A stretch of 61,022 bases of DNA from an uncultured Candidatus Saccharibacteria bacterium (GTDB taxonomy: Bacteria; Patescibacteriota; Minisyncoccia; Phycocordibacterales; UBA12079), in contig CAZAKQ010000003.1 of NCBI GenBank assembly GCA_964486155.1, positions 1 through 61,022 on the forward strand, read 5' to 3'. Every line of letters begins with the position of its first letter. The first letter of the stretch is position 1. The notes under the pieces are model-generated. The model had not been told where the DNA came from. It did not search any database and saw only the letters and a list, made by a program, of their open reading frames with translations. Positions 438 to 54,558 of the stretch are shown piece after piece. A program made the translations under genes and the position numbers.

Positions 438-481
438 CTAAATATAAAAAACAGAGGAAACCCTCTGTTTTTTATATTTAG

Positions 482-564
482 TGCGCCGGGCTGGATTCGA
501 ACCAGCGTAATCCGAAGATGCGAGTTTTACAGACTCGTGTATTTGACCGCTCTACCACCGACGC
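482..564 (-). tRNA. tRNA-Tyr(GTA), class II (long variable arm)
   Basis: The reverse complement reads GCGTCGG..CTGTAAA anticodon loop..variable-arm hairpin..GCTGG-TTCGAAT-CCAGC-CCGGCGC-A. The acceptor stem is 7 bp. No CCA is encoded. Confidence 0.9.
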
Positions 565-9736: not shown

Positions 9737-9809
9737 GGCCATGTGGTGAAGTAGTTAACACGACGGTCTGCAAAACCGTTATGCGTGGGTGCAAATCCCA
9801 CCATGGCCT
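9737..9809 (+). tRNA. tRNA-Cys(GCA)
   Basis: The sequence reads GGCCATG..ACGGT-CTGCAAA-ACCGT..GTGGG-TGCAAAT-CCCAC-CATGGCC-T. The discriminator is U73. No CCA is encoded. Confidence 0.9.
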
Positions 9810-9834
9810 CAAGAATTTTCGCCAGAAAATATCT

Positions 9835-9973
9835 CTGGTAGGATTTGCACGGAACTTTTTCGCCGTAGGATTAAGAAAAAGTCTGAGGTTTTGGGGGAAG
9901 TTTGTGAGTATATCGTGAATACTTGGAACGATACGAACAAACTGGAGGAAAAAAATTCCCACCATGGCCTCAA
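9835..9973 (+). ncRNA. tRNA-Cys-linked shadow unit (inverted 3'-half copy ... direct copy of the tRNA 3' end)
   Basis: ctggtaggatttgcacgg (9835-9852) is a degenerate reverse complement of the tRNA-Cys T-arm and acceptor. tcccaccatggcctcaa (9957-9973) exactly repeats 9796-9812. The two ends can pair (TGGTAGGA with TCCCACCA). Confidence 0.4.
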
Positions 9974-10024
9974 AAAAGTTGAGTATTTTGAAAAATAGTA
10001 TAAAATAAGAAAAATGCCTGGGTG

Positions 10025-10106
10025 GTGGAATTGGTATACACGCAGCACTTAAAATGCTGTCTCTTCGGGGATGCGGGTTCGACTCCCGCCCCAGGCACAA
10101 AAAAGA
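10025..10106 (+). tRNA. tRNA-Leu(TAA), class II
   Basis: The sequence reads GCCTGGG..CAGCA-CTTAAAA-TGCTG..long variable arm..GCGGG-TTCGACT-CCCGC-CCCAGGC-A. Confidence 0.9.
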
Positions 10107-10154
10107 AAACATTAATTATTTAAATTAAGGTTTTTCTTTTTGTTTCCTGCAGGA

Positions 10155-10177
10155 CGGGAGTCGAACGGTGATAGAAA
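10155..10177 (+). repeat. Inverted partial copy of the tRNA-Leu T-arm and acceptor
   Basis: cctgcaggacgggagtcgaacgg contains cgggagtcgaac, the reverse complement of the tRNA-Leu T-arm. It is separated from the tRNA by the 10107-10151 hairpin. Confidence 0.55.
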
Positions 10178-25279: not shown

Positions 25280-28200
25280 ATGTCTAAGTTTTCACACCTT
25301 CATATTCATAGTCATTTTAGTCTTTTGAATGCTTTACCTAAAACAAAAGAATTGGTTTCTCGTGCTAAAGAATTAGAAATGTCTGCTCTAGCGATAACTG
25401 ATAATGGAAATATGTATGGCACAATTGAATTTTATCAAGAGTGTTTAAAACAAGAAATCAAACCTATCTTAGGAGTTGATTTTTATACTGCTTTAAAAAC
25501 TCGTCATGACAAAAGACCTGGGATAGATAATCGTAGTAATCGTTTAATTTTGTTAGCCAAAAATGAACAGGGTTATAAAAATTTAATTAAATTAGTAACT
25601 AAATCTTATTTAGAAGGTTTTTATTATCGTCCTAGAATTGATCGTGAATTAATCCAAAAATATAAAGAAGGCTTACTTTGCATAATGCCTCATTTTAGTG
25701 GAGAATCTTCTAAAGCTCTTCAATATGGAGATATTGAAAAAGCAAAAGAAGTTACAGATTGGTATCGAAAAATTTTTTCTGATTTCTATTTGGAAATCAC
25801 TCATCATCCAGAAATTGAAGGACAAGTTGAACTTAAAGAAAAAATTATAGATTTTGCTAAAAAAGAAAATTTAGATTTAGTGGCTTGCCAAGATGTTTAT
25901 TACATGAATCCTGATGACAAAAAAGCTCGAGATATTTTAATGTCAATTCAAAGTTCTAATACTAAATTTAGAAATGAAAAAGAAGATTTTTCTTTTATAG
26001 ATGAAATAACAGCTCAAAAATATTTTAAAGACACCCCAGAAGCAATTGAAAATATTCAAAAGATCGTAGATAAATGTAATATTGAATTAGATGTTGATAG
26101 TTGGTATTTCCCTGATATTGAAATTCCAAAAGGAGAAGATTATAATTCTCAACTTCGCAAAACTACTTATGCTGGAATAGAAAAAAGAGGTTTTACAAAA
26201 ACTAAAGAAATTGAAGAAAGGATTGAATATGAACTAAAAATTATTAAAGATAAAGGTTATTCATCATATTTTTTGATAATTGCTGATTTAATTCAATATG
26301 CTAGATCTGTAGGAATTTTGACTAATACTAGAGGTTCAGCAGCAGGATCTCTTGTTTCCTATTTAAATTTTATTACTAAAGTAGATCCTCTTAAATTAAA
26401 ACTTCCTTTTGAACGATTTATGAATCCTGGACGTCCCGGAATTCCTGATATTGATGTCGATATTGCTGATATTCGTCGAGATGATGTAATTGATTACATG
26501 AGAAAAAAATATGGGAATAAAGCTGTCGCTCAAATAGGAACTTTTGGAACTATGGCAGCTCGCGGATCTGTAAGAGATGTGACTAGAGCTTTAGGTTTTC
26601 CTTATGAACTAGGAGATAAAATTGCTAAATTAATTCCAATGGGCTCTCAAGGTTTCCCAATGACAATCGCCCGAGCTCTAGATATGGAAAAAGATTTGGA
26701 AAAATTACATAAAAATGATAAAGATGTTCAAGAAATAATTAAATACGCTCAAAAAATTGAAGGGTGTGCGAGACATATTTCTACTCATGCTGCTGGAGTT
26801 TTAATTTCTCCAACTCGAGTAGACGATTATACTCCTGTACAACAGGATAAAGACGGAAAAATTATTACTCAATATGATATGTATACTGGAGGTCGCGATG
26901 GAGTAGTTAATTTACCTAAATTTGATATTTTAGGAATTAAAAATTTATCTATTTTAGCTAATGCTATAAAATTAGCAAAAAAATTAAAAGGAGTAGAAGT
27001 TGATTTAGATAATATAGATTTAGAAGACAAAAAAACCTACGATATGTTAGCTCGAGGAGAAACCATGGGAACTTTCCAATTGAATGGACAAGGAATGACT
27101 CAGTATTTAAAAGAGTTGGAACCTCAAACTATTTGGGATATTATGGCAATGGTAGCTCTGTATCGTCCTGGACCAATAGCTTTTATCCCTGATTATATTA
27201 AAAGAAAAAATAATCCTAAATTAGTAACTTATTTACATCCTGAATTAAAAGATATTTTAGAACCAACTTACGGAATTATCATTTATCAAGATGATGTCAT
27301 GATGATTGCTGTAAATTTAGCCGGTTATACTTGGGCGGAAGCTGACAAATTCCGAAAAGCCATGGGAAAGAAAATTCCTGAAATGATGGCTGAACAACAT
27401 GATAAATTTTTCAAAGGTTGTTTAGAACATGGATTAGAGAAAAAAACTGTTAAAAAATTATGGGAGACTATTGAAACTTTTGCTGCTTATGGATTTAATA
27501 AAGCCCATTCTGCAAGTTATGGACGAATAGCTTATGAGACATCATATATGAAGGCTAACTTCCCTATTGAATATATGACTGCTTTGTTAATGGCTGATTC
27601 TGGTGACACAGATAAAGTTTCTGAAATAATCACAGAGTGTAAAAGATTAGGAATTGAAGTTCTTCCTCCTGATATAAATGAATCTTTTACAGATTTTACT
27701 ATTATTAAAAATGAAGAAACTGGTAATGAAGCTATTCGTTTTGGACTACAAACTATTAAAAATTTTGGAGAAGGAGTAGCTAATGAAGTAATTCAAGAAC
27801 GAAAGAAAAATGGAAAATTTAAATCGCTAGTAGATTTTTTGGAAAGAATTCAAGGAAGAAATATGAACAAAAAATCTCTAGAAGCTTTGACTATGTGTGG
27901 AGCTATGGATAAATTAGGCGAAAGAAAACAGATTATAGAAAATATGTATGAATTATTACAATACTCTAAAGATTTTGCCTCTAAACCAGAAGGTCAAGAT
28001 TCTTTATTTGGAGAGGATGTTAGTGTTTCTGAAATTACTCTTGAAAAAACTGAGCCAGCTACTATGGAACAAAAATTAATTTGGGAGAAAGAATTATTAG
28101 GTTTATATATTTCGGGACATCCTTTAGATAAATTTTCTAAACAATTATCAAAAAATCAAACTAATTTAATTAAAGTTAAAAAAGAATCTTTAGAAGGACT

Positions 28201-28444
28201 AACTACAGTAGTGGCTGGAATTGTAGAAGAATGCAAACCTATCTTAACCAAAAAAGGTGACAAAATGGCTTTTGTTCGGTTGTCTGATTTTAGCGGATCT
28301 TTAGAAGTGGTGGTTTTCCCAAAAGTTTACACAGAATTTGCTGACCTATTAGAAGAAGAAAAATGTATTATGATAAAAGGAAAAATTTCTAAAAGGAATG
28401 ACGAAACATCATTACTCGCTGAAAAAATAAAAGAACTTAAATAA
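25280..28444 (+). CDS. dnaE: DNA polymerase III alpha subunit
   Basis: The ORF is 1054 aa. It has an N-terminal PHP domain (HLHIHSHFSLL), the palm/fingers block FNKAHSASY and a C-terminal OB fold. Confidence 0.95.
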   Translation: MSKFSHLHIHSHFSLLNALPKTKELVSRAKELEMSALAITDNGNMYGTIEFYQECLKQEIKPILGVDFYTALKTRHDKRPGIDNRSNRLILLAKNEQGYKNLIKLVTKSYLEGFYYRPRIDRELIQKYKEGLLCIMPHFSGESSKALQYGDIEKAKEVTDWYRKIFSDFYLEITHHPEIEGQVELKEKIIDFAKKENLDLVACQDVYYMNPDDKKARDILMSIQSSNTKFRNEKEDFSFIDEITAQKYFKDTPEAIENIQKIVDKCNIELDVDSWYFPDIEIPKGEDYNSQLRKTTYAGIEKRGFTKTKEIEERIEYELKIIKDKGYSSYFLIIADLIQYARSVGILTNTRGSAAGSLVSYLNFITKVDPLKLKLPFERFMNPGRPGIPDIDVDIADIRRDDVIDYMRKKYGNKAVAQIGTFGTMAARGSVRDVTRALGFPYELGDKIAKLIPMGSQGFPMTIARALDMEKDLEKLHKNDKDVQEIIKYAQKIEGCARHISTHAAGVLISPTRVDDYTPVQQDKDGKIITQYDMYTGGRDGVVNLPKFDILGIKNLSILANAIKLAKKLKGVEVDLDNIDLEDKKTYDMLARGETMGTFQLNGQGMTQYLKELEPQTIWDIMAMVALYRPGPIAFIPDYIKRKNNPKLVTYLHPELKDILEPTYGIIIYQDDVMMIAVNLAGYTWAEADKFRKAMGKKIPEMMAEQHDKFFKGCLEHGLEKKTVKKLWETIETFAAYGFNKAHSASYGRIAYETSYMKANFPIEYMTALLMADSGDTDKVSEIITECKRLGIEVLPPDINESFTDFTIIKNEETGNEAIRFGLQTIKNFGEGVANEVIQERKKNGKFKSLVDFLERIQGRNMNKKSLEALTMCGAMDKLGERKQIIENMYELLQYSKDFASKPEGQDSLFGEDVSVSEITLEKTEPATMEQKLIWEKELLGLYISGHPLDKFSKQLSKNQTNLIKVKKESLEGLTTVVAGIVEECKPILTKKGDKMAFVRLSDFSGSLEVVVFPKVYTEFADLLEEEKCIMIKGKISKRNDETSLLAEKIKELK

Positions 28445-28496
28445 ATTCAAAACCAACGAACTTCATCGTCAGTCTTGGAAAAATGTTTGAACTTTT

Positions 28497-28586
28497 GAGG
28501 TCCGACTCCGCCAGCTGGCGGATTAACTAAAATAACCGTAATCTTTAGCTAATTGTTCTATCTTATCAATGCCGAAGTCGTACCTC
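28497..28586 (+). ncRNA. ~90-nt 3'-flank structured element, copy 3 (downstream of dnaE)
   Basis: The closing stem is gaggtccgac (28497-28506) with gtcgtacctc (28577-28586), followed by T7. It has the same core, including tccgccagctggcgga (28507-28522). It is co-oriented with dnaE. Confidence 0.5.
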
Positions 28587-28656
28587 TTTTTTTAAAACTC
28601 AAAATATTTCCCCTCACTTCCTCGAACTTCTTCTGATTTTATAGTTATTTAAAACT

Positions 28657-28684
28657 CAACTATTCCAGTTAACTGGAATAGTTG
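28657..28684. repeat. Perfect 28-nt palindrome caactattccagtt|aactggaatagttg
   Basis: It lies between the convergent dnaE and Nudix genes. A near-identical copy is at 12469-12496. Confidence 0.8.
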
Positions 28685-28689
28685 ATTTT

Positions 28690-29523
28690 CTATTTTTCTA
28701 AATATTTTTTAACTTCATTAAGTAAATTTTGAGATTCTTTAAAAGTAATAGTACTTAAAGCTTCAGAATAATTTAACCATTTTATTTGTTTTATTTCATG
28801 CTTAAATTCATTTGTTATTTTTTTATTAGTATCCGAAACAAATCCAATGAAATATTTTACTTGTTTATCATGTTTTTTACCATCTTTTTCAAAAGAATAA
28901 AATTCAAAAAACTCTTTCTCATTTTCTAATTTTATATTTTTAATTCCAGTTTCTTCGTAAAGTTCTCTTTTAGCAGTATCTAAATCATTTTCGTTTGTTT
29001 TTTTGTGACCTTTGGGAAAAGCCCAGTGACCTCCTTTGTGTAAAACTACTAGAAATAAATCTTCTTTTGTATCTTCTGAAAACACAGGTATTACTCCAAT
29101 TGATTTGTCTTTAATTTTTTTATTTATCGCTTTATCAATAAAAAGATAAATCAAATTAACAACCAATACTGCTATAAAAATTATTCCTGATTGTATTAAA
29201 AAAAAGAGAATTGCAAATCCTTCTGCTTCACCTTGAAAAACAATAAATACCCAAGGGAATAACAAAATGCTTCCAAATAGAACATATGATAAAGGAATAA
29301 GAAGACTTTTACCATAACTTACAAAATCACGATTTTTATGCTGATAGAGTAGACACGTTAAAATAATAAAAATAGGAAACACCCATGAATAAATAAAACC
29401 AATTATATCAAATAATGAAAAAGCAAATCCAGATTTAAAAAATCTTTCTGTAATCACCAACAAGGTAAATAATATTACGAAAACACCATTTACAATTAGT
29501 ATTTTATTAATTAATTCTTTCAT
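28690..29523 (-). CDS. Membrane-anchored Nudix hydrolase (polytopic N-terminal domain plus canonical Nudix box)
   Basis: The ORF is 277 aa with ~4-5 TM helices. It has GHKKTNENDLDTAKRELYEETGI, which fits GX5EX7REUXEEXGU, and an HWAFPKGH Ap4A-hydrolase-like context. Confidence 0.75.
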   Translation of the reverse strand: MKELINKILIVNGVFVILFTLLVITERFFKSGFAFSLFDIIGFIYSWVFPIFIILTCLLYQHKNRDFVSYGKSLLIPLSYVLFGSILLFPWVFIVFQGEAEGFAILFFLIQSGIIFIAVLVVNLIYLFIDKAINKKIKDKSIGVIPVFSEDTKEDLFLVVLHKGGHWAFPKGHKKTNENDLDTAKRELYEETGIKNIKLENEKEFFEFYSFEKDGKKHDKQVKYFIGFVSDTNKKITNEFKHEIKQIKWLNYSEALSTITFKESQNLLNEVKKYLEK

Positions 29524-29727
29524 ACACTTTTATTATTTATTTGTTAATATAATTTTCGTGTTTTTGATATTATTTGGAATGGATAATTCTAAAATAAATT
29601 TAATAGATAATAACCTTTTACATCCTCCAATTGTATCCATTCAGTATACTGTTTACTTATCTCACTATTAATTTTTTTTAAAATTTATCCTTTTCAAAAA
29701 TTTATGCTCATTTTCAAAAGTTTATGC

Positions 29728-30168
29728 TCATTCTTGTTTTGAATGCCTATAGCATTCATTTTTCCAGGATTCTGTTTTGATCATATCGCAAATGGAAGAA
29801 TCTTTAATAGTTATTGCAACATTAATCAAGCAAGAATCAATAAGCTTGTTTACATCATTAGAGATTAATCCGGAAACCATTACCATATTTTGACAAATAT
29901 TGGGATCTTTTTTCCCTGCTGCTGTGCCAATAATGCAGGCATTTTTTAATTCTTTGTTCTTAATATTTTGACAGATGTCCAAATCTTTTTTCTCGAAAGC
30001 AATCTTAGTATAACAGCTTGAAACACAAGAAGCGCAATCGGAAAAAATTCTTTCTTTAATGCTATTTTTGCAAGAGGCAAAGGGATCATTTAATATATGG
30101 AAACTAAATCCAATTATCGATATAACTACTATAATTACTAAAATAAATACTATTTTTTTATTTTTCAT
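29728..30168 (-). CDS. Secreted or membrane-anchored Cys-rich repeat protein, hypothetical
   Basis: The ORF is 146 aa with a signal/anchor helix and repeated C-x(n)-C units (DLDICQNI, DPNICQNM, DSSICDMI). Confidence 0.45.
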   Translation of the reverse strand: MKNKKIVFILVIIVVISIIGFSFHILNDPFASCKNSIKERIFSDCASCVSSCYTKIAFEKKDLDICQNIKNKELKNACIIGTAAGKKDPNICQNMVMVSGLISNDVNKLIDSCLINVAITIKDSSICDMIKTESWKNECYRHSKQE

Positions 30169-30197
30169 TTTTTCATTATACCATGTTCAAAAAATTT

Positions 30198-30226
30198 CAA
30201 CACCTCAAGTCGTTGAGGTGTTCAGC
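30198..30226. repeat. Hairpin caacacctcaag-tc-gttgaggtgtt(cagc), copy 1
   Basis: Its first 30 nt are identical to 31420-31449, and the homologous flank extends to about 48 nt. It lies just beyond the stop of the STAS-like gene. Confidence 0.8.
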
Positions 30227-30241
30227 TCCTTTATAGCTATG

Positions 30242-30544
30242 TTAAGCAAAAATATTATCTAACTTAATATTTGAAACTGGTTCTTTTTTAATTGCCATAG
30301 ACCGAGCTACAATTTCAAACATTTTTGAAATATCTTCGTTTGTGTTTTCAAATATTAAATATTTATTTTTCTTAACTTTATATTCTTCTTTTAATTTTAA
30401 AAATTCATGAGCAGCAGATCTAGAAATAAAGTCAACGTTAGAAAAATCTAAAACAACAGAATTGTCTTTTGCTTTTTCTATCTCTTTTTGATAATCTCTT
30501 ATCAAATCACGAGAACTTAAGATTTTTCTTTTTATTTTTATCAT
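30242..30544 (-). CDS. STAS-like (DUF4325-type) small protein
   Basis: The ORF is 100 aa. It has VVLDFSNVDFISRSAAHEFLKL, typical of STAS-like DUF4325. It is paired with the upstream GHKL ATPase. Confidence 0.55.
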   Translation of the reverse strand: MIKIKRKILSSRDLIRDYQKEIEKAKDNSVVLDFSNVDFISRSAAHEFLKLKEEYKVKKNKYLIFENTNEDISKMFEIVARSMAIKKEPVSNIKLDNIFA

Positions 30545-30568
30545 AATGTTTATGTTTATATAATAATA

Positions 30569-31387
30569 CTATTCTACAAAATTATAAAAGTCAATTTTTG
30601 ATTCAGGAAGAGGAATACGATAAGAAATAACAACTCCTTCCCAATTAATAGGAAATTGAGAAATTGTTTCCATTTTTGAATTAGCAAAATAAAATGCTTC
30701 TCCTGATATTAAAACAAATTCTCCCAACATCCCTTTAGTCACAAGTTCCTTTGAAGTTCTTAAACCATAACCTCTTTCTTCTCCTTTTGTACTATTCCCC
30801 TTAAATACTTCTTTTATAGAATCTATGTCTGATAAATCTATATTTTGATGATCTTTATAATTTTTAGAAAAACCTTTCCCTGTATCTACAATACAGATTT
30901 CTAATACTTTTTTATTAGGATAATATTGTAGTAAAGTATAACCAAAATCTTCTCCGCTATGTTCAAATATGTTTGTTATCAACTCACTCAAAGGTAATAA
31001 ATATGAATTTCTATTACCCTCTTGTTTTTTTGGTAAAAATTGAAATAGTTTTTGAAAAAATAAATTTTTGAAATCTTCTCTATCTTCTATATTATCATTT
31101 TTTAATTTAATTATAGGTGTATAAGTTTTATTTAGTAATCTAGAAATTCTTTTAAAAGAATTTTTATTATCGATTCCATTTGGGAATCTTACTGTTTTTA
31201 AATAATCTGAAATATTTGAAGATATATTTTTATAATCAGAATTATTTTTATCAATATAAGCAGAAATAGGTAATAATAGAATAGGTTCTATCCAATTAAT
31301 CTTAGAAAAATCAAAACAATCCGTTTCCTTAAAATTTTTAAAAATATCTATAAAAGAAATTAATTGTTTTTTTGTTAAAGGGTTCAT
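30569..31387 (-). CDS. GHKL-superfamily ATPase (anti-sigma-factor/Ser-kinase-like HATPase_c) with an unknown N-terminal domain
   Basis: It has the Bergerat-fold boxes ELITNIFEH (N box), DTGKGF (G1) and GYGL (G2). Confidence 0.65.
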   Translation of the reverse strand: MNPLTKKQLISFIDIFKNFKETDCFDFSKINWIEPILLLPISAYIDKNNSDYKNISSNISDYLKTVRFPNGIDNKNSFKRISRLLNKTYTPIIKLKNDNIEDREDFKNLFFQKLFQFLPKKQEGNRNSYLLPLSELITNIFEHSGEDFGYTLLQYYPNKKVLEICIVDTGKGFSKNYKDHQNIDLSDIDSIKEVFKGNSTKGEERGYGLRTSKELVTKGMLGEFVLISGEAFYFANSKMETISQFPINWEGVVISYRIPLPESKIDFYNFVE

Positions 31388-31419
31388 TAATAAAATTATA
31401 TCATATTTTAAAAAACTAC

Positions 31420-31448
31420 CAACACCTCAAGTCGTTGAGGTGTTCAGC
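31420..31448. repeat. Hairpin caacacctcaag-tc-gttgaggtgtt(cagc), copy 2
   Basis: It is a direct repeat of 30198-30226. It lies just beyond the stop of the wHTH gene. Confidence 0.8.
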
Positions 31449-31458
31449 TTTTTGATGG

Positions 31459-31764
31459 CTATATTACTTGATAATACACAGATTGACCAACTGTGCCGAT
31501 TTGTTTAATTTTTCCTTCTTTTTCTAACTGATCAAGATATCTTTCTGCAGTTGCGTTAGATACATTACATAGTTCTTCTATATCATTATTCGTTATCTTT
31601 TCGTTATCGTTTAAAAATTCTAGAATTTTAGATTTATTTTCAATTTTGGCTTCTGCTTGTTTTGAAAGAATATTTTTCTTTCCTCTTCCTCCTTTTTGCA
31701 TACTAAAATAACTTCCAATAATAATTCCTGCTATTCCTATTATAATTAAAATTGTGTAGTTCAT
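31459..31764 (-). CDS. Membrane-anchored winged-helix DNA-binding protein
   Basis: The ORF is 101 aa with an N-terminal TM helix. It has a wHTH segment ITNNDIEELCNVSNATAERYLDQLEKEGKI. Confidence 0.55.
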   Translation of the reverse strand: MNYTILIIIGIAGIIIGSYFSMQKGGRGKKNILSKQAEAKIENKSKILEFLNDNEKITNNDIEELCNVSNATAERYLDQLEKEGKIKQIGTVGQSVYYQVI

Positions 31765-31825
31765 ATAAATTATTGTAACATATCTGATTGAGTTTTTACT
31801 ATAAGTTGATATAATCCAAGTTATT

Positions 31826-31900
31826 GGCCCTATCGTCTAATGGTTAGGACGCAAGCTTCTCAAGCTTGTAATCCGGGTTCGACTCCCGGTAGGGTCACCA
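31826..31900 (+). tRNA. tRNA-Glu(CTC), CCA encoded
   Basis: The sequence reads GGCCCTA..CAAGC-TTCTCAA-GCTTG..CCGGG-TTCGACT-CCCGG-TAGGGTC-A-CCA. Confidence 0.92.
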
Positions 31901-31999
31901 AATCCTGTTTTTCTATATATTTATCCGTCTTGACACAAAAAACCAAAGCATGTTTCGGTTTTTTGTGTTTTTGGGGTAAAATTAAAGATATAAATAAAC

Positions 32000-32905
32000 A
32001 TGCAAAAATATAATTTTATAAAAAAAGATATTATTGATAATTTATCCCATCAAAAAAATCCACCTTTTAAACTTGTTGAAATATGTCATGATATCAATAC
32101 TAATTATTTAAAAAATAGATATCAAGTAGTGATAGTATTTATCAGAGCTGTATTAGATTACATCCCTCCAATTTTTGGATATAAAACAACTTCTCAAGTA
32201 TATAGTAATTTAAAAAAATATAAATCATTCAAAAAAGCTCTAGAAGGAGTAGATAAATCTACAAGAAATCTTGCTGATGATATATTACACAATCAAGCAA
32301 CTATTAATGAAATAATAAAAGTTGATAAACCCTCTTGTGATTTTGTTAGAGATAATTTAACTCTTATTCTTACCTCTGTTATAAATCAATTAGAAAAAAA
32401 AGATTTACGAACTACTTCTCTAAATCGATTAGAAAAAAAATATGAAAAACCTAAATCTCAAATCCAATTATTTGAAAAATATATAAAAAATATAAGAAAC
32501 TGGAAAAAAGAATTTATAAACAGCAAAGAAGTTTGGATTTATTCAAAAGATAATTTATACCAAATTCATCAACAAGATGATATTAAAGATTTTTCAGAGC
32601 CTTGGACTCAAGTTTGGTTCAATTCAAAAGGTTCTGGTAAATATTATATAGATTTAAAATATAATGGTAGCATCATAAAACAATTTCCAATGATTTATTT
32701 TGATGGGGGAAGAGAAAATATAATTATGCCAAAAATGGAAACTTCTTCAAAAACTAATTTCTGGGAAAATAAAGATATTTATGGAGGTCATTATAAAAAT
32801 GTTGCTTACTATATAATTAAAGATAGTATAGAGTACAACCTATCAAAACTTTTAGGTTCAAATATTGAAAAGATAATTAAAAAGTCTAATATTGAGATAA
32901 GATAA
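32000..32905 (+). CDS. Hypothetical protein (orphan, between tRNA-Glu and the tRNA-Glu-like repeats)
   Basis: The ORF is 301 aa and Lys/Asn-rich. I recognise no family. Confidence 0.5.
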   Translation: MQKYNFIKKDIIDNLSHQKNPPFKLVEICHDINTNYLKNRYQVVIVFIRAVLDYIPPIFGYKTTSQVYSNLKKYKSFKKALEGVDKSTRNLADDILHNQATINEIIKVDKPSCDFVRDNLTLILTSVINQLEKKDLRTTSLNRLEKKYEKPKSQIQLFEKYIKNIRNWKKEFINSKEVWIYSKDNLYQIHQQDDIKDFSEPWTQVWFNSKGSGKYYIDLKYNGSIIKQFPMIYFDGGRENIIMPKMETSSKTNFWENKDIYGGHYKNVAYYIIKDSIEYNLSKLLGSNIEKIIKKSNIEIR

Positions 32906-33156
32906 TTTATATAAATAAAACAAAAAACTACCGTCTAGTAACGGTTTCTATTTCTGATAAAATTAGCAAAAATAGGTAGAGGGGTTTGTTTTAGTATGAT
33001 AGATAAGCTATATACAAACTTTTTGCTAATTTTTTATAATTAATATTATTTGGAATTTTCTTTTTTAATTCAGTATAACAAGAATACTTGAGCCAAGGAT
33101 TTTTTTTCGAACAATAACGCTGAAATATTAGGTCTCTTTCATTCTGTGGTTCTAAA

Positions 33157-33185
33157 GTTCGAGAGTTGTCCCGATAGGGTTCACA
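33157..33185 (+). repeat. Degenerate tRNA-Glu 3'-end copy (unit U0) followed by a terminator hairpin
   Basis: gttcgagagttgtcccgatagggttcaca compares with the tRNA's gttcgactcccggtagggtcacca. It is followed by aaaaaactcagtcttttgactgggtttttt. Confidence 0.5.
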
Positions 33186-33224
33186 AATTTAAAAAACTCA
33201 GTCTTTTGACTGGGTTTTTTAAAT

Positions 33225-33367
33225 TCTAGTGAATCCCCTGTGTGGGATAGTCGAAAGTCAGAAGAAAATTCGAGATTTTCTGAGACGGGGTCGAGAACAC
33301 TTTGTAAAATTTGAGTTTACGAAAAATTTTACTTAGTGATTCGTGACCGACTCCCGGTAGGGTCACA
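33225..33367 (+). ncRNA. tRNA-Glu-like structured unit U1
   Basis: It ends in cgactcccggtagggtcac, a 19-nt exact match to tRNA-Glu 31880-31898. It contains two AT hairpins set in G+C-rich junction helices. A 21-bp perfect hairpin follows at 33364-33409. Confidence 0.4.
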
Positions 33368-33409
33368 AATCGCCAAAGAGCAAATAGTTTTGCTCTTTGG
33401 CGATTTGTG

Positions 33410-33525
33410 AAGGCGGAGGCCTATTTTTACGACCTATTAGAGAGTAAAAAAGCTGAGCCGAGGTCACGAACACTTAGATATTTTAAGTCCGTAAGGACGA
33501 AAAAAATATTTAGTGATTCGGGACA
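33410..33525 (+). ncRNA. tRNA-Glu-like structured unit U2 (lacks the acceptor-like 3' end)
   Basis: It has the same module order as U1 and U3: ...ggaggc, AT hairpin, ctgagccgaggtcacgaacac, AT hairpin, gtgattcgggac. Confidence 0.35.
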
Positions 33526-33606
33526 CAAGTAAACTCAGTATGCAAAGCACTCAATTAACTCAACTAAAGAATCAAAGCGAATGCTTTGATTTTTTATATT
33601 TTGGTA

Positions 33607-33770
33607 GACCCTACTGGGAGCCGAAAGACGGAGGCTGCGAAGCCATATTTTTCAGAAAGAAAAATATGCAGTCGAGTCCGGGCAGGAGCCACTTGATAAA
33701 ATATAAGTGAACTTGTGAACGAAATATTTTATCTTAGTGAGCTGACGCCGAATCTTCCGGTAGGGTCACA
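33607..33770 (+). ncRNA. tRNA-Glu-like structured unit U3 with a complete acceptor-type closing stem
   Basis: 5' GACCCTAC (33607-33614) pairs perfectly with 3' GTAGGGTC (33760-33767), followed by ACA. The interior holds two AT hairpins and G+C junction helices homologous to U1 and U2. Confidence 0.45.
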
Positions 33771-33869
33771 AAAACTCAAATATCTTTACTTTTTAAACTT
33801 TTTAGTTTATATTTTTTGTAGAAGAAGTAACAGTTAATTTAAACTTCAAACCCAAAAAGGAGCCCTTTT

Positions 33870-34298
33870 ATGAAAATCTTACTTATTTTTATACAAAGAA
33901 CTTCACCCTTAATACTTGAAGCATTGGAAAAAATGCAGGAAAAAGCATCTTCCATTGGTGTTAATACAGGTGAATCAACAATCACCGTCTCAAACAAAAA
34001 CTTAGGTAGTTATAAACTGACCCTATCATTAACAAACAACACCCAAGTTAGAGTTAATGTTCCTGGAAAAAGTGATGTAAATTTTGCTGGTGTTGCCGCT
34101 TTAAAATCAGTTCAAATGCAACGCACGAAAAAACCCAGTGGTAAAGATGATGGGTTTATTGGAGAAATACCGTATAAAGGAGGTTTATGTTTCAACAAAG
34201 ACGGATATTCTGTACAAGTGTCTTACAGCGGGGGAACTCAGAATGAAGATGTGGAAATTGCAAAAGTCGGAATTAGTGAAATGATGTTTTTAGTATAA
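33870..34298 (+). CDS. Hypothetical protein, weakly GlcG/DUF336-like
   Basis: The ORF is 142 aa. The C-terminal GGLCFNKDGYSVQVSYSGGTQNEDVEIAKVGI resembles the GlcG/HbpS motif. The SD is aaaggag. Confidence 0.4.
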   Translation: MKILLIFIQRTSPLILEALEKMQEKASSIGVNTGESTITVSNKNLGSYKLTLSLTNNTQVRVNVPGKSDVNFAGVAALKSVQMQRTKKPSGKDDGFIGEIPYKGGLCFNKDGYSVQVSYSGGTQNEDVEIAKVGISEMMFLV

Positions 34299-34494
34299 TT
34301 TATTATTTCAAAACATAGCCAATAAATCACTTAATGAAAAATCGCTCAGCGACTTTATCGTTAAGTGGTTTTTCTATTCCCTACCTAACAAACAAAAGAT
34401 AAAGATTTTATTACAAAACTTATATAAGTTTATATGTTTATAGTAGATAAAAACAAATGTATAAATTTTTACAATAAAAAATAAGGAGAGTAAA

Positions 34495-34527
34495 ATGTGT
34501 GAAGAACATCCATTTTCACATCATTAG
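34495..34527 (+). CDS. 10-codon mini-ORF MCEEHPFSHH with a strong SD, overlapped at its stop by a terminator
   Basis: The SD taaggagag lies 5 nt upstream. The stop TAG is the first 3 nt of the hairpin tagtagcaat-ccg-attgctacta, which is followed by a T-run (34525-34552). Confidence 0.3.
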   Translation: MCEEHPFSHH

Positions 34528-34598
34528 TAGCAATCCGATTGCTACTATTTTTCGGAATTAAGGTATAGACATTGGGTGTCTGTGCCTGTAATTTTACG

Positions 34599-36233
34599 TT
34601 ATTTTCTTAATTTTTGTTCTATTGAATATAAAATAGAATTTATTTCTTCATTCTTTAATAGTTTAAGAGTAATGAACCAAGCAATAATTCCCATTACTCC
34701 AGATAATAAACCTTGTAAGAAAATTCCTACTAAAGTATTTATGTTAAAAATGTCATCCCAAATTTTTAGTGAGAAATAAGCTATTATCCCCATTATTAAA
34801 GAAGCTACACAAATCTGAAAAAAAGATCTTGATAAATCTTTTAATAAATATTGAAAATCTTTTTGGATGAAGAAATAAAGTAAAAACATATTTAATATAA
34901 CAGCGATAGCAAAACTAAGGGGCAAAATAATTACTTGAATATCAGAAATATCTTCTATCTTTAATAAATAACCTAAACCTGTTAACAAAATAGGGGTAGT
35001 TGTAAAAATCCATTTAAACAAAAAAACTAAAATAACAGTAAAAATAGAAGAAAAAATATTTATCAATACAGGTCTTTTAGTTATCCCAGCTGCATAATAA
35101 CCTCGTATAAAAAACAAAACTAGAGATTGAGCTGGAATAGAAATAGCAAAAATTGCTAAACAAGCAGCAGTCAAACGAGTATCTATCCAAGTAAATTCCC
35201 CTGAACCTAAAACCGTTCTTACAATCTGAGCCCTCAAAACAAACAGCAATACCATAGCAAAAATAGTCCAAAATAAAATATGTCTAGCCGTTATTCCTAT
35301 TTGTCGCATAAATTCACTTTTTTTATTTATTGATATTTTAGACAATAAAGGAAAAGCTGCTGTAGTATAACTTACTCCAATTATGGTTAATGGAATAGAC
35401 TGTAAAGCAAAAGCAAAATTAAAAATGGCAATAGACCCTTCTTTTAAATAAGAAGCTATTGAAAATAATATTAAAACAGCTATACTACTTGAAGAAACAG
35501 CTAAGGTTCTAGGTAAAGATAATTTAACTATATCTTTTATTTTATTTATGTTTATCTTATGAGTAAATTGGGGGATAAAGTTTAATCTATAAATAGAAGG
35601 TAATTGTATTATTAAATGCAAGAAAGCTCCTGTAATAACCCCTACGGCTAGCCCAGAAATCCCCCACAAAGGATAATAAAACAATATTCCGATAATAATA
35701 CCTATATTATATAGAAGTGGACTTAAAGCATAAACATAAAATTTATTTTTAGTTTGAATAATACTAGTAAAGAAATTAGATAGTCCTAAAAGAATCGGAG
35801 ACAAGAGCATTATTCTAGAAAGATTTATAACTTGATTTGAAGTATCTGTTCCAAAACCACTAAAAATAATAGGGATTATTTTGGGTATAAGAAAAAAAGC
35901 TATAACTGAAACAAATAAAATTAAAACCAAAAAGACAGAAAAAATCTCACTCATTAAGTTTTTAGCCTCTTCGTCATTTTTTTCTTTTGATAAGATAGGA
36001 ATTAAAACAGAAACTGAAACAATTGAAGCTACTATAATAAAAATAAAATCAGGAATTCTGAAAGCAGAATAGTAAATATCTAAAGTTTCTCCGGCACCAA
36101 ATGTATGAGCCAAAATCCGATCTCTTAACAAAGCCAATAATTGAGATAAAAAAGCAGAAAAACCTAAAATATAAGCGGCCTTATGCAGACCGCTTATATC
36201 TTTGTCTAAGAAATTAAATACTCGTTTTATCAT
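34599..36233 (-). CDS. murJ: Lipid II flippase MurJ
   Basis: The ORF is a 544-aa polytopic MOP-superfamily protein. Its N-terminus AAYILGFSAFLSQLLALLRDRILAHTFGAG is typical of MurJ. Confidence 0.88.
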   Translation of the reverse strand: MIKRVFNFLDKDISGLHKAAYILGFSAFLSQLLALLRDRILAHTFGAGETLDIYYSAFRIPDFIFIIVASIVSVSVLIPILSKEKNDEEAKNLMSEIFSVFLVLILFVSVIAFFLIPKIIPIIFSGFGTDTSNQVINLSRIMLLSPILLGLSNFFTSIIQTKNKFYVYALSPLLYNIGIIIGILFYYPLWGISGLAVGVITGAFLHLIIQLPSIYRLNFIPQFTHKININKIKDIVKLSLPRTLAVSSSSIAVLILFSIASYLKEGSIAIFNFAFALQSIPLTIIGVSYTTAAFPLLSKISINKKSEFMRQIGITARHILFWTIFAMVLLFVLRAQIVRTVLGSGEFTWIDTRLTAACLAIFAISIPAQSLVLFFIRGYYAAGITKRPVLINIFSSIFTVILVFLFKWIFTTTPILLTGLGYLLKIEDISDIQVIILPLSFAIAVILNMFLLYFFIQKDFQYLLKDLSRSFFQICVASLIMGIIAYFSLKIWDDIFNINTLVGIFLQGLLSGVMGIIAWFITLKLLKNEEINSILYSIEQKLRK

Positions 36234-36324
36234 ATTTTAGAAATTAGAAATTAGATTTTAGGTAATTAGAAACAAATTTTGTAGAACAAAATTTATTTGT
36301 TTTAATATTCTAGTGTTCTTGTGC

Positions 36325-36342
36325 CTGCCTACCGATAGGCAG
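36325..36342. repeat. G+C-rich hairpin, family 2 (ctgccta-ccga-taggcag)
   Basis: It has a perfect 7-bp stem and a CCGA loop. It lies 5 nt beyond the stop of the O-antigen-ligase-like gene. Confidence 0.75.
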
Positions 36343-36346
36343 ATTT

Positions 36347-38761
36347 TTATGATTCTAGTTCTTCTTCAGTAGTTTCTTCTCCATCTTCAGCTTCTTCTTC
36401 GTTTTCACTTTCTTCTTCTACCTCTTCTTCTATTGGAGTAGGAAGAGTTTGTTGTTGGAATCCAGCAAAAGGATTTCTTCCTTCTTTTATATTTTCTAAA
36501 ATTTTATCTATATTTGTATCGTTAGGGTTTAAAATTTTTAAATCTTGGAATTGACCTATAGCTTTATCTCGTTGACCAATTTCATTATAAGTTAAAGCTA
36601 ATAAATATTTAGCATCTGAATAATAAGGACTTAATACAACTGCTCTCTCTAGAAAAGCTTGAGCTTTTTTATAATCTCGTTCTTCATAATTTAAAGCCCC
36701 TAACTGAAGGAACACCTGAGGATCATTTGGAGAAACTGAAGCTAGTGCTTCAATTATTTGTATTGCTTGTTCTTTATTACCAGCATTCAGTTCTAATTGG
36801 GATAACAAGTAATAAGCATTTGAATAATTTTGTTTCATTTGAATTGAAATTCCAATATACTCCTTAGCTTTTTCTAAATCTCCTTTAGTAATTTCTAAAT
36901 TAGCTAAATTCAGAACTAATAACGGACTCTTTGGATTTAAACGAATAGCTTGAGAATAAGCTTGGAAAGCCTTATCATAAGCTCCTTCTATTTGTAAAGG
37001 AGCTACAGCTCCGTAAACTTTAGCTAAAGAATTCCAATTTTGATAATTACTTTGATCTAACAAAATAGCTTGTTGAGCACTTCCTATAGTAGCCGAAAAA
37101 ATCGCTTGAAATTGTTCTTGTAACTGTTCTTGACTAACATCTTTTTGATTAAACACATTTTGCAATTGTATTAGATTTAAATCAGTCAAATTTCTAAAAT
37201 AAAGATCATTTGGATAAACAGTAGCAGCTTTAACTAATGAATTGTATCCTTTATTAAAATCCTGATCTATATTAATAGCTTTTGAAGCTTGATTAAATTG
37301 AATTGAAGCATAAACTTTTTTAGAAAATAAAAATGTTCCAAAAGCAGTAGTTCCTAAAATAACTACCATTAAAATAATAAATACTATTAATCTTGGTTTT
37401 GATTGATTAAAAGAAATCCTTCTCACTTTTATTAAGTTTTCTTTTTTTAAGAAAGCTATTAAAATTCCTAAAATTGAGAATGTTAGGCCTAAAATAACTA
37501 TCCCTGGAACATAAAAAATGAAAAATAAAATTAAATACAAACTCAGGCTAAATAAAGACAATATAACGAAATGATCAAGTTTGTTATAATAAGAGGATTT
37601 TATTAATTTAAATCCAAGATAAAGAATTGATCCAATAAACAACAACCATGCTAAGAAACCTACTGAACCTACTGTTGCTAGCGAAGACAATATAAAACCT
37701 GCTCCTGAATTAAAATCAGTATTCCAAAATTGAGTAAGAGCTATTTCTTGAGGTTTATGTAAAATCCATTGATTAATAAATTTACTTGGTCCTGCTCCTA
37801 GAATTAAATCTGTGCCTAAAGTAGATTTACCTATATCTAATGTACTTGAAATTGTAGGGCGTACTTCTATATTAGAAATACCAAAAGTTTGGGGTAAAAA
37901 TCCTGTTATTTGCCCTGGTAACAATATAAATAATAAAGTTATTATAAAAACATAGGAAGAAGGATTTTTATATAATTTTTTGAAGTTAAATCCATTTTCA
38001 GTTTTATTTAAGAAAAAATTATAAATAACTAAAAACAAAGAAATTAACATTAAAAATATCCAAACTAAATTAAAATTAATTAATGAAATAAATAATAAAG
38101 ATATTATTAATAATACCAAGCTAGTAATTTTAATAATTTTATTTTTATTTAAATATTCATTAGCTATTAATGTAATAATTACAATCAATCCCAAAAAAAC
38201 TCCTAATTCATTCCAAGTTCCAACCAAATTAGAAATATTAGAGTTTAAAAGCCCTAAAGATAAAAAATTTGGCCCTAAAAATAATCTTAACAAATGCACC
38301 AACATCATCAGGAAGGCTGATAAAATTAAACTTATATAAAAGAAAAATACCTTTCTCCTAGAGTTAAAAGATTTAGCCGTAAAAAACAACAACATAAACA
38401 AGGCTAGGATCATAGCAAAAGAACTTGTTTCAAATCCATAACCAATTAATCCCGCCATTTTAGACCCTGAAAAAAAAGCTGATAGTAAATAAGTCAAAGG
38501 AATTAAATAAGCGGATATTACTAAAAGATTTTTAGAAACAAAAAAATCTCTATTTTTAATTCTATCAATTATCCACATTAAAAATAATAAAATTACTCCT
38601 AAGAACAAAATTATATTTTTACTTGCCACGAAGGAAATTAAATTTACAGGAATAATAAAAATAGGCAAAAGAAAAGCCATGGCTATTCCAATTATAAGTG
38701 AAATTTTATTCATAAAAAATCCTTGCTTATCTATATCTATAGTTGTGTTTGATGTATCCAT
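36347..38761 (-). CDS. O-antigen ligase (Wzy_C)-like polytopic membrane protein with C-terminal TPR repeats and an acidic tail
   Basis: The ORF is 804 aa. It has ~12 TM helices, then TPR-like repeats (AYYLLSQLELNAGNKEQA...), and ends EEEVEEESENEEEAEDGEETTEEELES. Confidence 0.75.
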   Translation of the reverse strand: MDTSNTTIDIDKQGFFMNKISLIIGIAMAFLLPIFIIPVNLISFVASKNIILFLGVILLFLMWIIDRIKNRDFFVSKNLLVISAYLIPLTYLLSAFFSGSKMAGLIGYGFETSSFAMILALFMLLFFTAKSFNSRRKVFFFYISLILSAFLMMLVHLLRLFLGPNFLSLGLLNSNISNLVGTWNELGVFLGLIVIITLIANEYLNKNKIIKITSLVLLIISLLFISLINFNLVWIFLMLISLFLVIYNFFLNKTENGFNFKKLYKNPSSYVFIITLLFILLPGQITGFLPQTFGISNIEVRPTISSTLDIGKSTLGTDLILGAGPSKFINQWILHKPQEIALTQFWNTDFNSGAGFILSSLATVGSVGFLAWLLFIGSILYLGFKLIKSSYYNKLDHFVILSLFSLSLYLILFFIFYVPGIVILGLTFSILGILIAFLKKENLIKVRRISFNQSKPRLIVFIILMVVILGTTAFGTFLFSKKVYASIQFNQASKAINIDQDFNKGYNSLVKAATVYPNDLYFRNLTDLNLIQLQNVFNQKDVSQEQLQEQFQAIFSATIGSAQQAILLDQSNYQNWNSLAKVYGAVAPLQIEGAYDKAFQAYSQAIRLNPKSPLLVLNLANLEITKGDLEKAKEYIGISIQMKQNYSNAYYLLSQLELNAGNKEQAIQIIEALASVSPNDPQVFLQLGALNYEERDYKKAQAFLERAVVLSPYYSDAKYLLALTYNEIGQRDKAIGQFQDLKILNPNDTNIDKILENIKEGRNPFAGFQQQTLPTPIEEEVEEESENEEEAEDGEETTEEELES

Positions 38762-54087: not shown

Positions 54088-54260
54088 AAAAAAATTAAAT
54101 TAATAATAATTAATATTATTATATAATAATATCACAAAATAACGTATAAAATAGTATTTTTACTGGAAGGATAATCTGATTATTTGGAGATACAGGAAAA
54201 TAAAGAAATTCATTCCATTTCTCAGCACAAATTAAACACCCCAACATGTTGAGGTGTTTA

Positions 54261-54480
54261 ATTTGTGCTGAGGGGCACTCGTCCTGACGATCTCTAAATA
54301 AAATTCTTCGCTATCGCTTAAATTTTATTAAGAGTCGCGGGACACGGCTCACTATCGTTCCGTTTCCTTCGCTTCGCTACGGAATACTCACGATATGCTC
54401 CGCCGTTCGAGCCCGCACGAAAGCCAAACAATTGGCTTTCTCTCTCAACAAAAATTAAAATTCCCGATTTGGGAATTTAA
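54261..54480 (-). ncRNA. tRNA-Phe-linked shadow unit
   Basis: In minus sense it starts just after the tRNA-Phe trailer hairpins. It contains gtgcgggctcgaacggcgg, an inverted T-arm copy whose plus-strand form gttcgagcccgc lies at 54405-54416. It ends in gtgcccctcagcacaaat, which repeats the tRNA 3' end (16-nt identity between 54261-54276 and 54481-54496). Confidence 0.4.
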
Positions 54481-54485
54481 ATTTG

Positions 54486-54558
54486 TGCTGAGGGGCGGGC
54501 TCGAACCGCCGACCCTTCGCTCTTCAGGCGAATGCTCTACCAACTGAGCTACCTCAGC
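54486..54558 (-). tRNA. tRNA-Phe(GAA)
   Basis: The reverse complement reads GCTGAGG-TA-GCTCAGTTGGTAGAGC..TTCGC-CTGAAGA-GCGAA..GGCGG-TTCGAGC-CCGCC-CCTCAGC-A. Confidence 0.92.

Follow-up and report, generated by a model that had tools for sequence, protein, structure and literature searches.

What is the run of structured, tRNA-like sequence that follows a tRNA-Glu gene in an uncultured Candidatus Saccharibacteria bacterium, and did it arise from that gene? The stretch analysed here, called the window, comprises 61,022 nucleotides (nt) of contig CAZAKQ010000003.1 and represents a bacterial chromosome of low G+C, on which Pfam places DnaE (25280-28444) and MurJ (34599-36233). ARAGORN and the Rfam tRNA model identify nine tRNA genes in it, among them tRNA-Glu (CTC) at 31826-31900 of the plus strand (65.3 bits with Rfam tRNA). 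A first inspection of the letters, the sequence-only reading, had described three or four homologous units, U0 to U3, in the spacer further downstream, and had proposed that they form a family of tRNA-like RNAs next to their parental tRNA. The finding is real and more general than that reading: U1, U2 and U3 are members of a structured RNA family spread over the Patescibacteria, and were not born beside a 'parental' tRNA-Glu at this site.

The relationship of the array to tRNA-Glu is readily documented. The source of the copies in U1 and U3 is the final 19 nt of the gene ahead of CCA (CGACTCCCGGTAGGGTCAC, 31880-31898), and the exact 19-nt match reported at the end of U1 is indeed found at 33348-33366. 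A 20-nt version of the same segment has copies at 90% identity at 33351-33370 and 33754-33773 and at 75% identity at 33168-33187, while CCGGTAGGGTCAC, with up to three mismatches allowed, occurs seven times against 1.0 expected. All three non-tRNA copies continue with CAAA in place of CCA. The stretch of about 680 nt that holds the array is richer in G+C than the spacer, as had been noted, with values of 0.37-0.49 over 33150-33750 versus 0.19-0.27 in the surroundings. When folded against shuffled sequences, U1, U2 and U3 reached z-scores of -4.2, -4.7 and -7.7, respectively, and U0 a z-score of 0. Furthermore, the core pattern GAGnnnRGGn7CACTT..ACGAA..TTAGTGA has exactly three matches in the 61 kb, all of them in the array, where none is expected. 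Hence, a shared motif, the folds and a covariance model (R1) hold U1, U2 and U3 together as homologous units, whereas U0 drops out of the series, since no core is recovered there by R1 even with the search filters off.

All features of the array lie on the plus strand. U1 (33228-33366; R1 94.9 bits, E 2e-21) is a full unit, consisting of a 5' arm at 33229-33253 that is an interrupted complement of the 3' arm, a three-way-junction core, and a 3' arm at 33348-33366, the exact copy of tRNA-Glu from the T loop to the 3' end. It is preceded by a hairpin with 18-nt arms that are 94% complementary (33186-33225) and followed by an inverted repeat forming a hairpin of 100% complementarity (33363-33410), at the base of which the tail of U1, TCACAAA, pairs with TTTGTGA, the start of U2. 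The latter (33404-33529; R1 77 bits, E 5e-17) is a short unit with an intact core but neither a tRNA-derived 3' arm nor the inner 5' arm, the inner closing helix being absent as well. A computed terminator-like hairpin with a T run (33565-33596) stands between U2 and U3, the latter (33599-33770; R1 63.2 bits, E 1e-13) being a full unit of a variant type, with GCAGGAGC..GCUGACGCC at the base of its long arm. The 5' strand of U3 does pair with its 3' end, yet the closing helix comprises 14 base pairs (bp), between 33607-33620 and 33754-33769, instead of the eight proposed, and over 19 nt the 5' strand is reverse-complementary to the 3' end of the tRNA. It is not the 5' acceptor strand of a tRNA, as had been suggested, since its sequence goes on to complement T-loop bases 56-60. 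Of the further statement that the tRNA-like ends carry no CCA and run into a terminator-like hairpin, the first part is sound for all three ends, but such a hairpin was not found after U3.

One genome per species was searched with a strict core pattern, and each locus was inspected in an 8-kb view. At least 118 loci carry the strict core; all those with a lineage name belong to the Patescibacteria, and the listed loci include Paceibacterota, Saccharibacteria and the Kaiser-, Campbell-, Nomura- and Yonath-bacteria. R1, applied in the manner that the sequence-only reading had recommended for related genomes, finds about 175 copies within the listed Patescibacteria loci plus two more in the window, and has zero matches in 123 viral loci. 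A looser core pattern had pointed to at least 120 viral loci, which were rejected as chance matches since R1 scored none of the 123, and three matches of CCGGTAGGGTCACAAA in viral contigs are likewise due to chance and lie in coding sequence. At gathering score, Rfam 15 recognizes only tRNAs in the window and only tRNA and tmRNA (transfer-messenger RNA) in the other loci; below threshold, with E up to 10, the best matches in the window are microRNA and small RNA noise, with nothing real except tRNAs. Together, these searches point to a widespread structured RNA family of Patescibacteria that is missing from Rfam 15, its novelty being judged against that library.

The position of the units relative to genes is equally consistent. 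In 84 of the 118 listed loci a tRNA or tmRNA gene lies within 400 nt upstream on the same strand, and 73 of those 84 units sit no more than 150 nt from it. The hosts comprise at least 19 tRNA isotypes (Arg, Val, Leu and Glu among them, with every isotype represented) as well as tmRNA, a range that contradicts an origin of the family beside the tRNA-Glu of the window. In at least 12 of the 118 loci the unit follows a protein gene, again on the same strand: the core stands immediately after the stop codon of ftsZ in four genomes (L169, L181, L183 and L190), of rplB in three (L214, L219 and L262) and of rplL in three more (L226, L237 and L240). With most of these protein hosts the complement arm matches the final 10-20 nt of the open reading frame (ORF), stop codon included, and in the case of ftsZ and rplL the end of the ORF is repeated after the core. 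Judging from this placement, the units behind ftsZ, rplB and rplL could affect the 3' ends of the respective mRNAs.

A MAFFT alignment of 116 family loci and U1, U2 and U3 (119 sequences) supports a consensus fold of 25 pairs, 19 of which show compensatory changes; one example pair occurs as CG 40, GC 39, AU 19 and UA 13 times. Paired cells amount to 95.1% versus 74.5% in shuffled alignments, and the covariation score of 0.536 versus 0.159 in the shuffles was reached by none of 500 of them. When the partners are slid by 1-3 columns, the score falls to 0.045-0.073. The helix enclosing the second hairpin, which had been reported to covary between U1, U2 and U3, covaries in the full alignment too, and the impression of a conserved structure with divergent sequence is thereby borne out for a real family. 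G.U pairs outnumber A.C pairs by 72 to 19, and the folded strand is therefore the tRNA-sense strand. The junction nucleotides are invariant throughout the alignment.

The full module has a fixed order: X, that is, the final nucleotides of the upstream gene; a hairpin; the reverse complement of X; the core; and a direct copy of X. The hairpin after X often bears a conserved CUGC-type loop, and at its base X is paired with the reverse complement. The complement is followed by CGAAAG and a 3-bp helix, GNC/GN'C, which is encountered in all four Watson-Crick combinations, then by a variable hairpin, by GA and GGGG, and by a long arm that reads UCGAGAA-CACUU..(A/U helix)..GAG-small hairpin-ACGAA..UUAGUGA-UUCGUGACC. 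The three-way-junction core measures about 110-130 nt, and upon it the complement and the copy of X form the closing helix, P1. A riboswitch-style alternation between P1 and the following hairpin was considered and rejected for U1, where the two share no more than 4 nt and the hairpin forms a 22-bp stem free of mismatches. With tRNA hosts, X extends from T-loop position 56/57 to 1-3 nt beyond the discriminator. Among the 84 tRNA- or tmRNA-adjoining units tested, 77 possess a reverse complement of at least 8 nt and 43 a direct copy in which 12 nt or more match, the latter most often beginning 8 nt after TTAGTGA, at tRNA position -19.

The relation between core and arms is clearest where the same core is met behind different genes. 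The cores of L184 (behind tRNA-Phe) and L208 (behind tRNA-Glu of another genome) are about 96% identical over some 135 nt and their hairpins are homologous, yet both arms are unrelated between the two loci and each fits its own tRNA. The same holds for L191 (tmRNA) and L171 (tRNA-Val), and for L204 (after tmRNA) and L224 (after tRNA-Ser). New copies therefore keep the scaffold and take both arms from the new site. The 5' arm is not a leftover of the 5' half of a duplicated tRNA, an idea that we rejected because the arm extends into the complement of T-loop bases 56-60 (AATCG opposite CGATT, for example, and not TTCGA). Nor is an origin of the arms from mature tRNA by reverse transcription supported, because the copies carry the gene's own tail in place of CCA, with L149 as the sole exception. 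Since the same core also works with arms unlike those of a tRNA, the tRNA likeness is probably a by-product of the landing site and not clearly designed mimicry. The proposal that the units are tRNA mimics thus probably misses the point: behind ftsZ, rplB and rplL the core wears the arms of those genes.

Tandem arrays are present elsewhere in the family, with three units in L256 and four in L192. In L218, L166, L243 and L159 the repeat that follows the core takes in the tRNA end together with the following hairpin, exact over 30 to more than 40 nt. Because both elements are included, whole modules are, to judge by these repeats, duplicated in tandem.

A syntenic locus in a related genome (L203) allows the history of the array to be traced. 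It reads, in order, genuine tRNA-Glu, hairpin, U1', a copy of the tRNA end, hairpin and U2', and window positions 33157-33530 align to its stretch from the tRNA end to U2'. Because this alignment places the genuine 3' end of tRNA-Glu at 33157-33184, U0 (GTTCGAGAGTTGTCCCGATAGGGTTCAC, with the T-loop GTTCGA retained) is, on this comparison, the decayed original 3' end of the gene, displaced by an insertion of about 1.3 kb (31901-33156) that is missing at the same position in L203; the hairpin at 33186-33225 is homologous to the one that lies 3' of the real tRNA-Glu there. The end of U0 is thus a diverged tRNA copy (75%), as had been seen, but it is no unit end. By the same alignment U1 and U2, with U1' and U2' as their orthologues, are a pair inherited behind tRNA-Glu, and the insertion is the later event; U3 has no counterpart in L203. 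The distal helices of U1 and U2 differ wholly from those of U1' and U2', yet they are paired, the changes being fully compensated, and selection on the structure therefore follows. The two loci also differ at the end of the tRNA gene itself: in the window, 31898-31903 (GGGTCACCAAA) includes an encoded CCA, whereas the copies in U1 (33366-33370) and U3 and the tRNA-Glu of L203 read GGGTCACAAA. The encoded CCA therefore appears to stem from the recent insertion of one base. Among the other tRNA genes at family loci, most have no CCA of their own and end in N73-CA(A).

The inserted segment of about 1.3 kb contains a hairpin (31933-31968) and an ORF of 301 amino acids (aa; 32000-32905). Neither this ORF nor one of 142 aa downstream of the array matches a family in Pfam, PADLOC or NCBIfam. 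Homologues of the 301-aa ORF, with 40-60% identity, are confined to Patescibacteria; in two longer contigs examined they lie amid resolvase, KAP NTPase, Fic and MrcB/HNH genes, and in another genome (L146) a homologue with 59% identity directly follows tRNA-Glu(CTC). The segment looks like a small island that is aimed at tRNA-Glu and is devoid of an integrase. That the RNA element carries the 301-aa ORF as cargo was considered and rejected, as the comparison with L203 makes it appear a separate, later insertion. The absence of an integrase, one of the first observations at this locus, holds in both directions: Pfam detects none among the ten ORFs spanning 25280-38761, and none recurs in the 118 listed loci.

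The variant contig L008, which stems from a sample of the same type, is identical to the window over 31882-33367 and splits from it exactly after the tRNA-like copy of U1. From there on (1487-2365 of L008), U2, U3 and the 142-aa ORF of the window are replaced by another hairpin, a U3-like unit that is truncated (89% identical), a gene with an ASCH domain and an ORF of 71 aa. As far as the two contigs show, this is a strain-level exchange exactly at the tRNA-like copy. In addition, numerous independent contigs from metagenomes, with the flanking genes on them, stop inside 33181-33299, from the tail of U0 into the 5' half of U1, which suggests either more structural variants or assembly trouble caused by the repeats. 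In view of the divergence of L008 and of these contig ends, the locus is therefore polymorphic in the population.

The array is not the only representative of the family in the window, where five of the nine tRNA genes are followed by a unit or remnant and four by none. Downstream of tRNA-Phe (54485-54558, minus strand) a full unit occupies 54221-54451 of the minus strand (R1 53 bits, E 3e-11), with pieces of the 5' arm at 54442-54451 and 54406-54416, the core at 54279-54432, the 3' arm at 54261-54280 and a trailing hairpin at 54221-54272. A diverged unit lies on the minus strand at 268-440, downstream of tRNA-Tyr (481-564, minus strand), where R1 matches 281-439 with 22 bits (E 0.001); the complement of the tRNA-Tyr 3' end is found at 414-426 and 434-440, and a diverged copy at 268-282. 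The plus-strand element behind tRNA-Cys (9737-9810), at 9836-9971, was recognized by eye from its perfect arms (complement 9836-9850, direct copy 9956-9971), and its core is so different that R1 does not find it. Finally, a remnant at 10099-10165 of the plus strand, after tRNA-Leu (10016-10098), consists of a hairpin and a complement (10152-10165) without a core, again identified by eye.

How is this distribution best explained? At a probability of roughly 0.45, we favour the reading that U1, U2 and U3 are copies of a non-coding structured RNA module that attaches to the 3' ends of genes on the same strand and is either mobile or domesticated. Its transcription, its mobility with the mechanism behind it, and its role in the cell we infer as follows. 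The module would be transcribed from the promoter of the upstream gene, because the gap between the two is usually too short to accommodate another one, and would act as a folded RNA. It would spread by copy-and-re-arm, with the core kept and both arms taken from the new site, as a non-autonomous mobile element or as the domesticated descendant of one. The acceptor/T-arm likeness of P1 would then be a consequence of the module's arrival behind tRNA genes. The direct copy may go back to staggered cuts around X, and the complement may represent a guide or the product of fold-back synthesis. In the window, U1 and U2 would have been inherited behind tRNA-Glu until the later insertion of about 1.3 kb pushed the old tRNA end, U0, away.

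Several points weigh against this explanation. Among the loci compared, no pair of filled and empty sites was caught, and mobility is for that reason deduced from the patterns among paralogues only. We know of no enzyme, and found none, that makes both an inverted and a direct copy of its target. No recurrent partner is apparent, be it an integrase, a reverse transcriptase, TnpB or any other protein, among the 2236 ORFs of the 118 listed loci; the largest cluster of neighbouring proteins reaches 12 of the 118, and the ten printed cluster representatives are housekeeping-like by eye (FtsZ and MiaA, for instance), without a family search. The strict pattern and the 8-kb views would miss a partner encoded elsewhere in the genome. 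P1 is not universal, short units such as U2 being devoid of the direct copy. Finally, orthologues are kept across species under structural selection, and a host function fits at least as well as a selfish element does.

This last point leads to an alternative which we regard as unlikely, though deserving of serious attention, namely that the units are host-serving small RNAs that mimic tRNA, like RtT of E. coli, and form a gene family and not a mobile element. P1 would imitate the acceptor/T-arm minihelix and be cut by RNase P at the 5' side and by RNase Z or exonucleases at the 3' side, where CCA would be added, and the conserved junction would bind a translation or stress factor. The exact reproduction of the T stem and the acceptor 3' strand by P1 at tRNA hosts speaks for such mimicry, as do the similar layout of RtT, where rttR ends at a tRNA-like CCA, the maintenance of orthologues with compensatory changes and the conservation of the core over deep lineages of Patescibacteria. 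It is less easily reconciled with the non-tRNA-like arms of the same core behind ftsZ, rplB and rplL, with the lack of a tRNA-derived 3' arm in about half of the tRNA-adjoining copies, with the missing CCA, and with the frequency of decayed or truncated copies, three of which occur in this window.

A broader conjecture, which appears distinctly unlikely to us, is that of a protein-less, programmable RNA element, a single conserved scaffold that spreads among gene 3' ends and has both arms, complement and copy, rewritten from each new host. It would be either a non-coding mobile element of a new kind, with the T loops of tRNAs as its target, or a ribozyme or processing module that acts in cis and whose guide arm is set by its host gene. 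A separate rival, a purely cis-acting 3'-end module for the upstream gene, is improbable and would be a wager at long odds: here the complement arm would guide the module to the final nucleotides of the upstream RNA, so that a long duplex is presented to RNase III or to termination, or the RNA end is placed in the catalytic core of a self-processing ribozyme. Indeed, the complement arm is the most constant of the variable features (77 of 84) and matches ORF ends inclusive of the stop codon; together with the intervening hairpin, duplexes of up to about 35 pairs that start inside the tRNA are predicted; and the junction nucleotides are as invariant as those of ribozyme cores. Yet no self-cleaving ribozyme in Rfam resembles the units, the direct copy would have no role in such a process, and the tRNAs of the window that lack a unit (four of nine) mature by other means.

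That the units are single-stranded-DNA recombination sites, in the way of integron attC or the folded attP of phage CTX, we consider very improbable. The folded top strand would mimic the 3' end of a tRNA gene for a recombinase acting in trans, and cassettes would be swapped at the direct copies. The combination of conserved structure and divergent sequence recalls attC, L008 switches to different genes exactly at the end of the tRNA-like copy of U1, and the 1.3-kb segment is flanked by copies of the tRNA 3' end. Most units, on the other hand, stand 80-150 nt after the tRNA with no cargo, no recombinase is recurrent nearby, the core goes far beyond what a recombination hairpin requires, both in elaboration and in conservation of sequence, and the tolerance of G.U pairs favours RNA. 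The weakest proposal, ordinary attL/attR scars left by islands repeatedly entering tRNA-Glu, is close to negligible and holds for U0 only, a displaced tRNA 3' end beside a 1.3-kb insertion whose 301-aa ORF has homologues amid island-type genes elsewhere (resolvase, KAP NTPase, Fic, MrcB/HNH); for U1, U2 and U3 it is refuted by the covariation of the conserved core and by its distribution in some 175 copies, mostly without an island, and it sits poorly with a reverse-complement arm, foreign to att scars, and with the lack of an integrase in the neighbourhood of the window. The caution that the units are not att scars was consequently well placed for these three, while U0, by the L203 comparison, is one.

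Small ORFs are called mechanically over the RNA units of the window, at 33226-33366 (minus strand) and at 33407-33532, 33513-33710 and 33715-33837 (plus strand), with lengths of 40-65 aa, and spurious ORFs of some 90 aa, read in other genomes from the strand opposite the unit, form 'families' in 8-11 loci. Such ORFs are likely to be mis-annotated as hypothetical proteins. Just upstream of tRNA-Glu, the minus strand carries four small genes (29728-31764), which code for a protein of 146 aa without a family, a STAS-domain protein of 100 aa, a weakly matching ATPase of the histidine-kinase type of 272 aa and a winged-helix protein of 101 aa. PADLOC returned only generic helix-turn-helix matches for this set, which may be a partner-switching or anti-sigma module.

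Should the favoured reading of a gene-3'-end RNA module be true, the very small genomes of Patescibacteria would carry many copies of a large structured RNA that is in no curated library. New bacterial RNA classes of such size, breadth and clear covariation are now few. A constant scaffold with host-matched arms would imply either the copying of a target in two orientations by a novel route or a guide-like function. In practical terms, the units probably explain assembly breaks and mis-called small ORFs beside tRNA genes in Patescibacteria.

Several known arrangements were compared with the array and set aside. The units are not tRNA pseudogenes: they show no cloverleaf, searches with ARAGORN and the Rfam tRNA model recover the nine true tRNAs and nothing else, and the 5' arm reverse-complements the 3' arm, T-loop bases included, and does not copy the 5' half of the tRNA. 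An integron attC array was rejected in the absence of an integrase and of any ORF of 60 aa or more between U1, U2 and U3, and a type III toxin-antitoxin array because the units are 120-170 nt long and diverged and the downstream 142-aa ORF belongs to no family. The attL/attR sites of tRNA genes share the direct repeat from the T loop to the tRNA 3' end, and the repeats at 31880-31898 and 33157-33184, which flank the 1.3-kb segment, fit this scheme for U0 alone; U1, U2 and U3 differ by the covarying core, the complement arm and the lack of an integrase, and usually carry no cargo. REP, BIME and REPIN sequences resemble the units in being multi-copy, non-coding, structured, located 3' of genes, subject to compensatory changes and mobilised, if at all, in trans, but they are simple hairpins of fixed sequence, with no target-derived arms and no preference for tRNA genes. 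The omega-RNA of TnpB/IscB and the bridge RNA of IS110 likewise set a fixed scaffold beside a variable segment that equals or complements the flanking target, a likeness of general design; the present units differ in holding both a complement and a copy of the target, paired together, and have no Rfam match. TnpB, IscB or an IS110 recombinase does not recur beside the units in the 8-kb views of the 118 listed loci, an effector elsewhere being possible.

The closest parallel is RtT (RF00391), the 178-bp repeats distal to tyrT-tyrV of E. coli that include the small RNA rttR, and the statement that the units fit no described class has to be qualified accordingly: they match nothing in Rfam 15, but an analogue of the same design exists. 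RtT units, too, stand in tandem just 3' of a tRNA on the same strand. Each ends in a 19-nt copy of tRNA-Tyr from the T loop to the 3' end (AATCCTTCCCCCACCACCA), the reverse complement of which (GGGGAAGGAT) lies about 110 nt upstream; in the Rfam consensus structure the helix of complement and copy closes the unit, as P1 does here, and the rttR RNA, as annotated, stops precisely at the CCA of the tRNA-like end. In the same way U1, U3 and the family end in a T-loop-to-3'-end copy of the tRNA paired with its complement, whereas U2 is without one. The core folds are unlike, however, and the E. coli copies include CCA while those of Patescibacteria do not. E. coli has no intervening hairpin where the Patescibacteria modules have one, and the Patescibacteria family occurs behind no fewer than 19 isotypes, behind tmRNA and behind some protein genes, its arms being re-set each time, whereas RtT, to our knowledge, is confined to tRNA-Tyr in enterobacteria. 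RF00391 has no match in the window at gathering score or with E up to 10, and R1 scores at most 4 bits at the E. coli tyrT locus. With no homology detectable either way, we file the units as working like RtT by analogy, and not as members of RF00391. The corresponding region of E. coli holds the tyrT terminator, a point in favour of the purely cis-acting reading, and a link of RtT to the stringent response has been proposed. The Patescibacteria units would thus provide a second and much richer case of the tyrT/RtT architecture, with many hosts and hundreds of copies that make comparative and biochemical tests practical.

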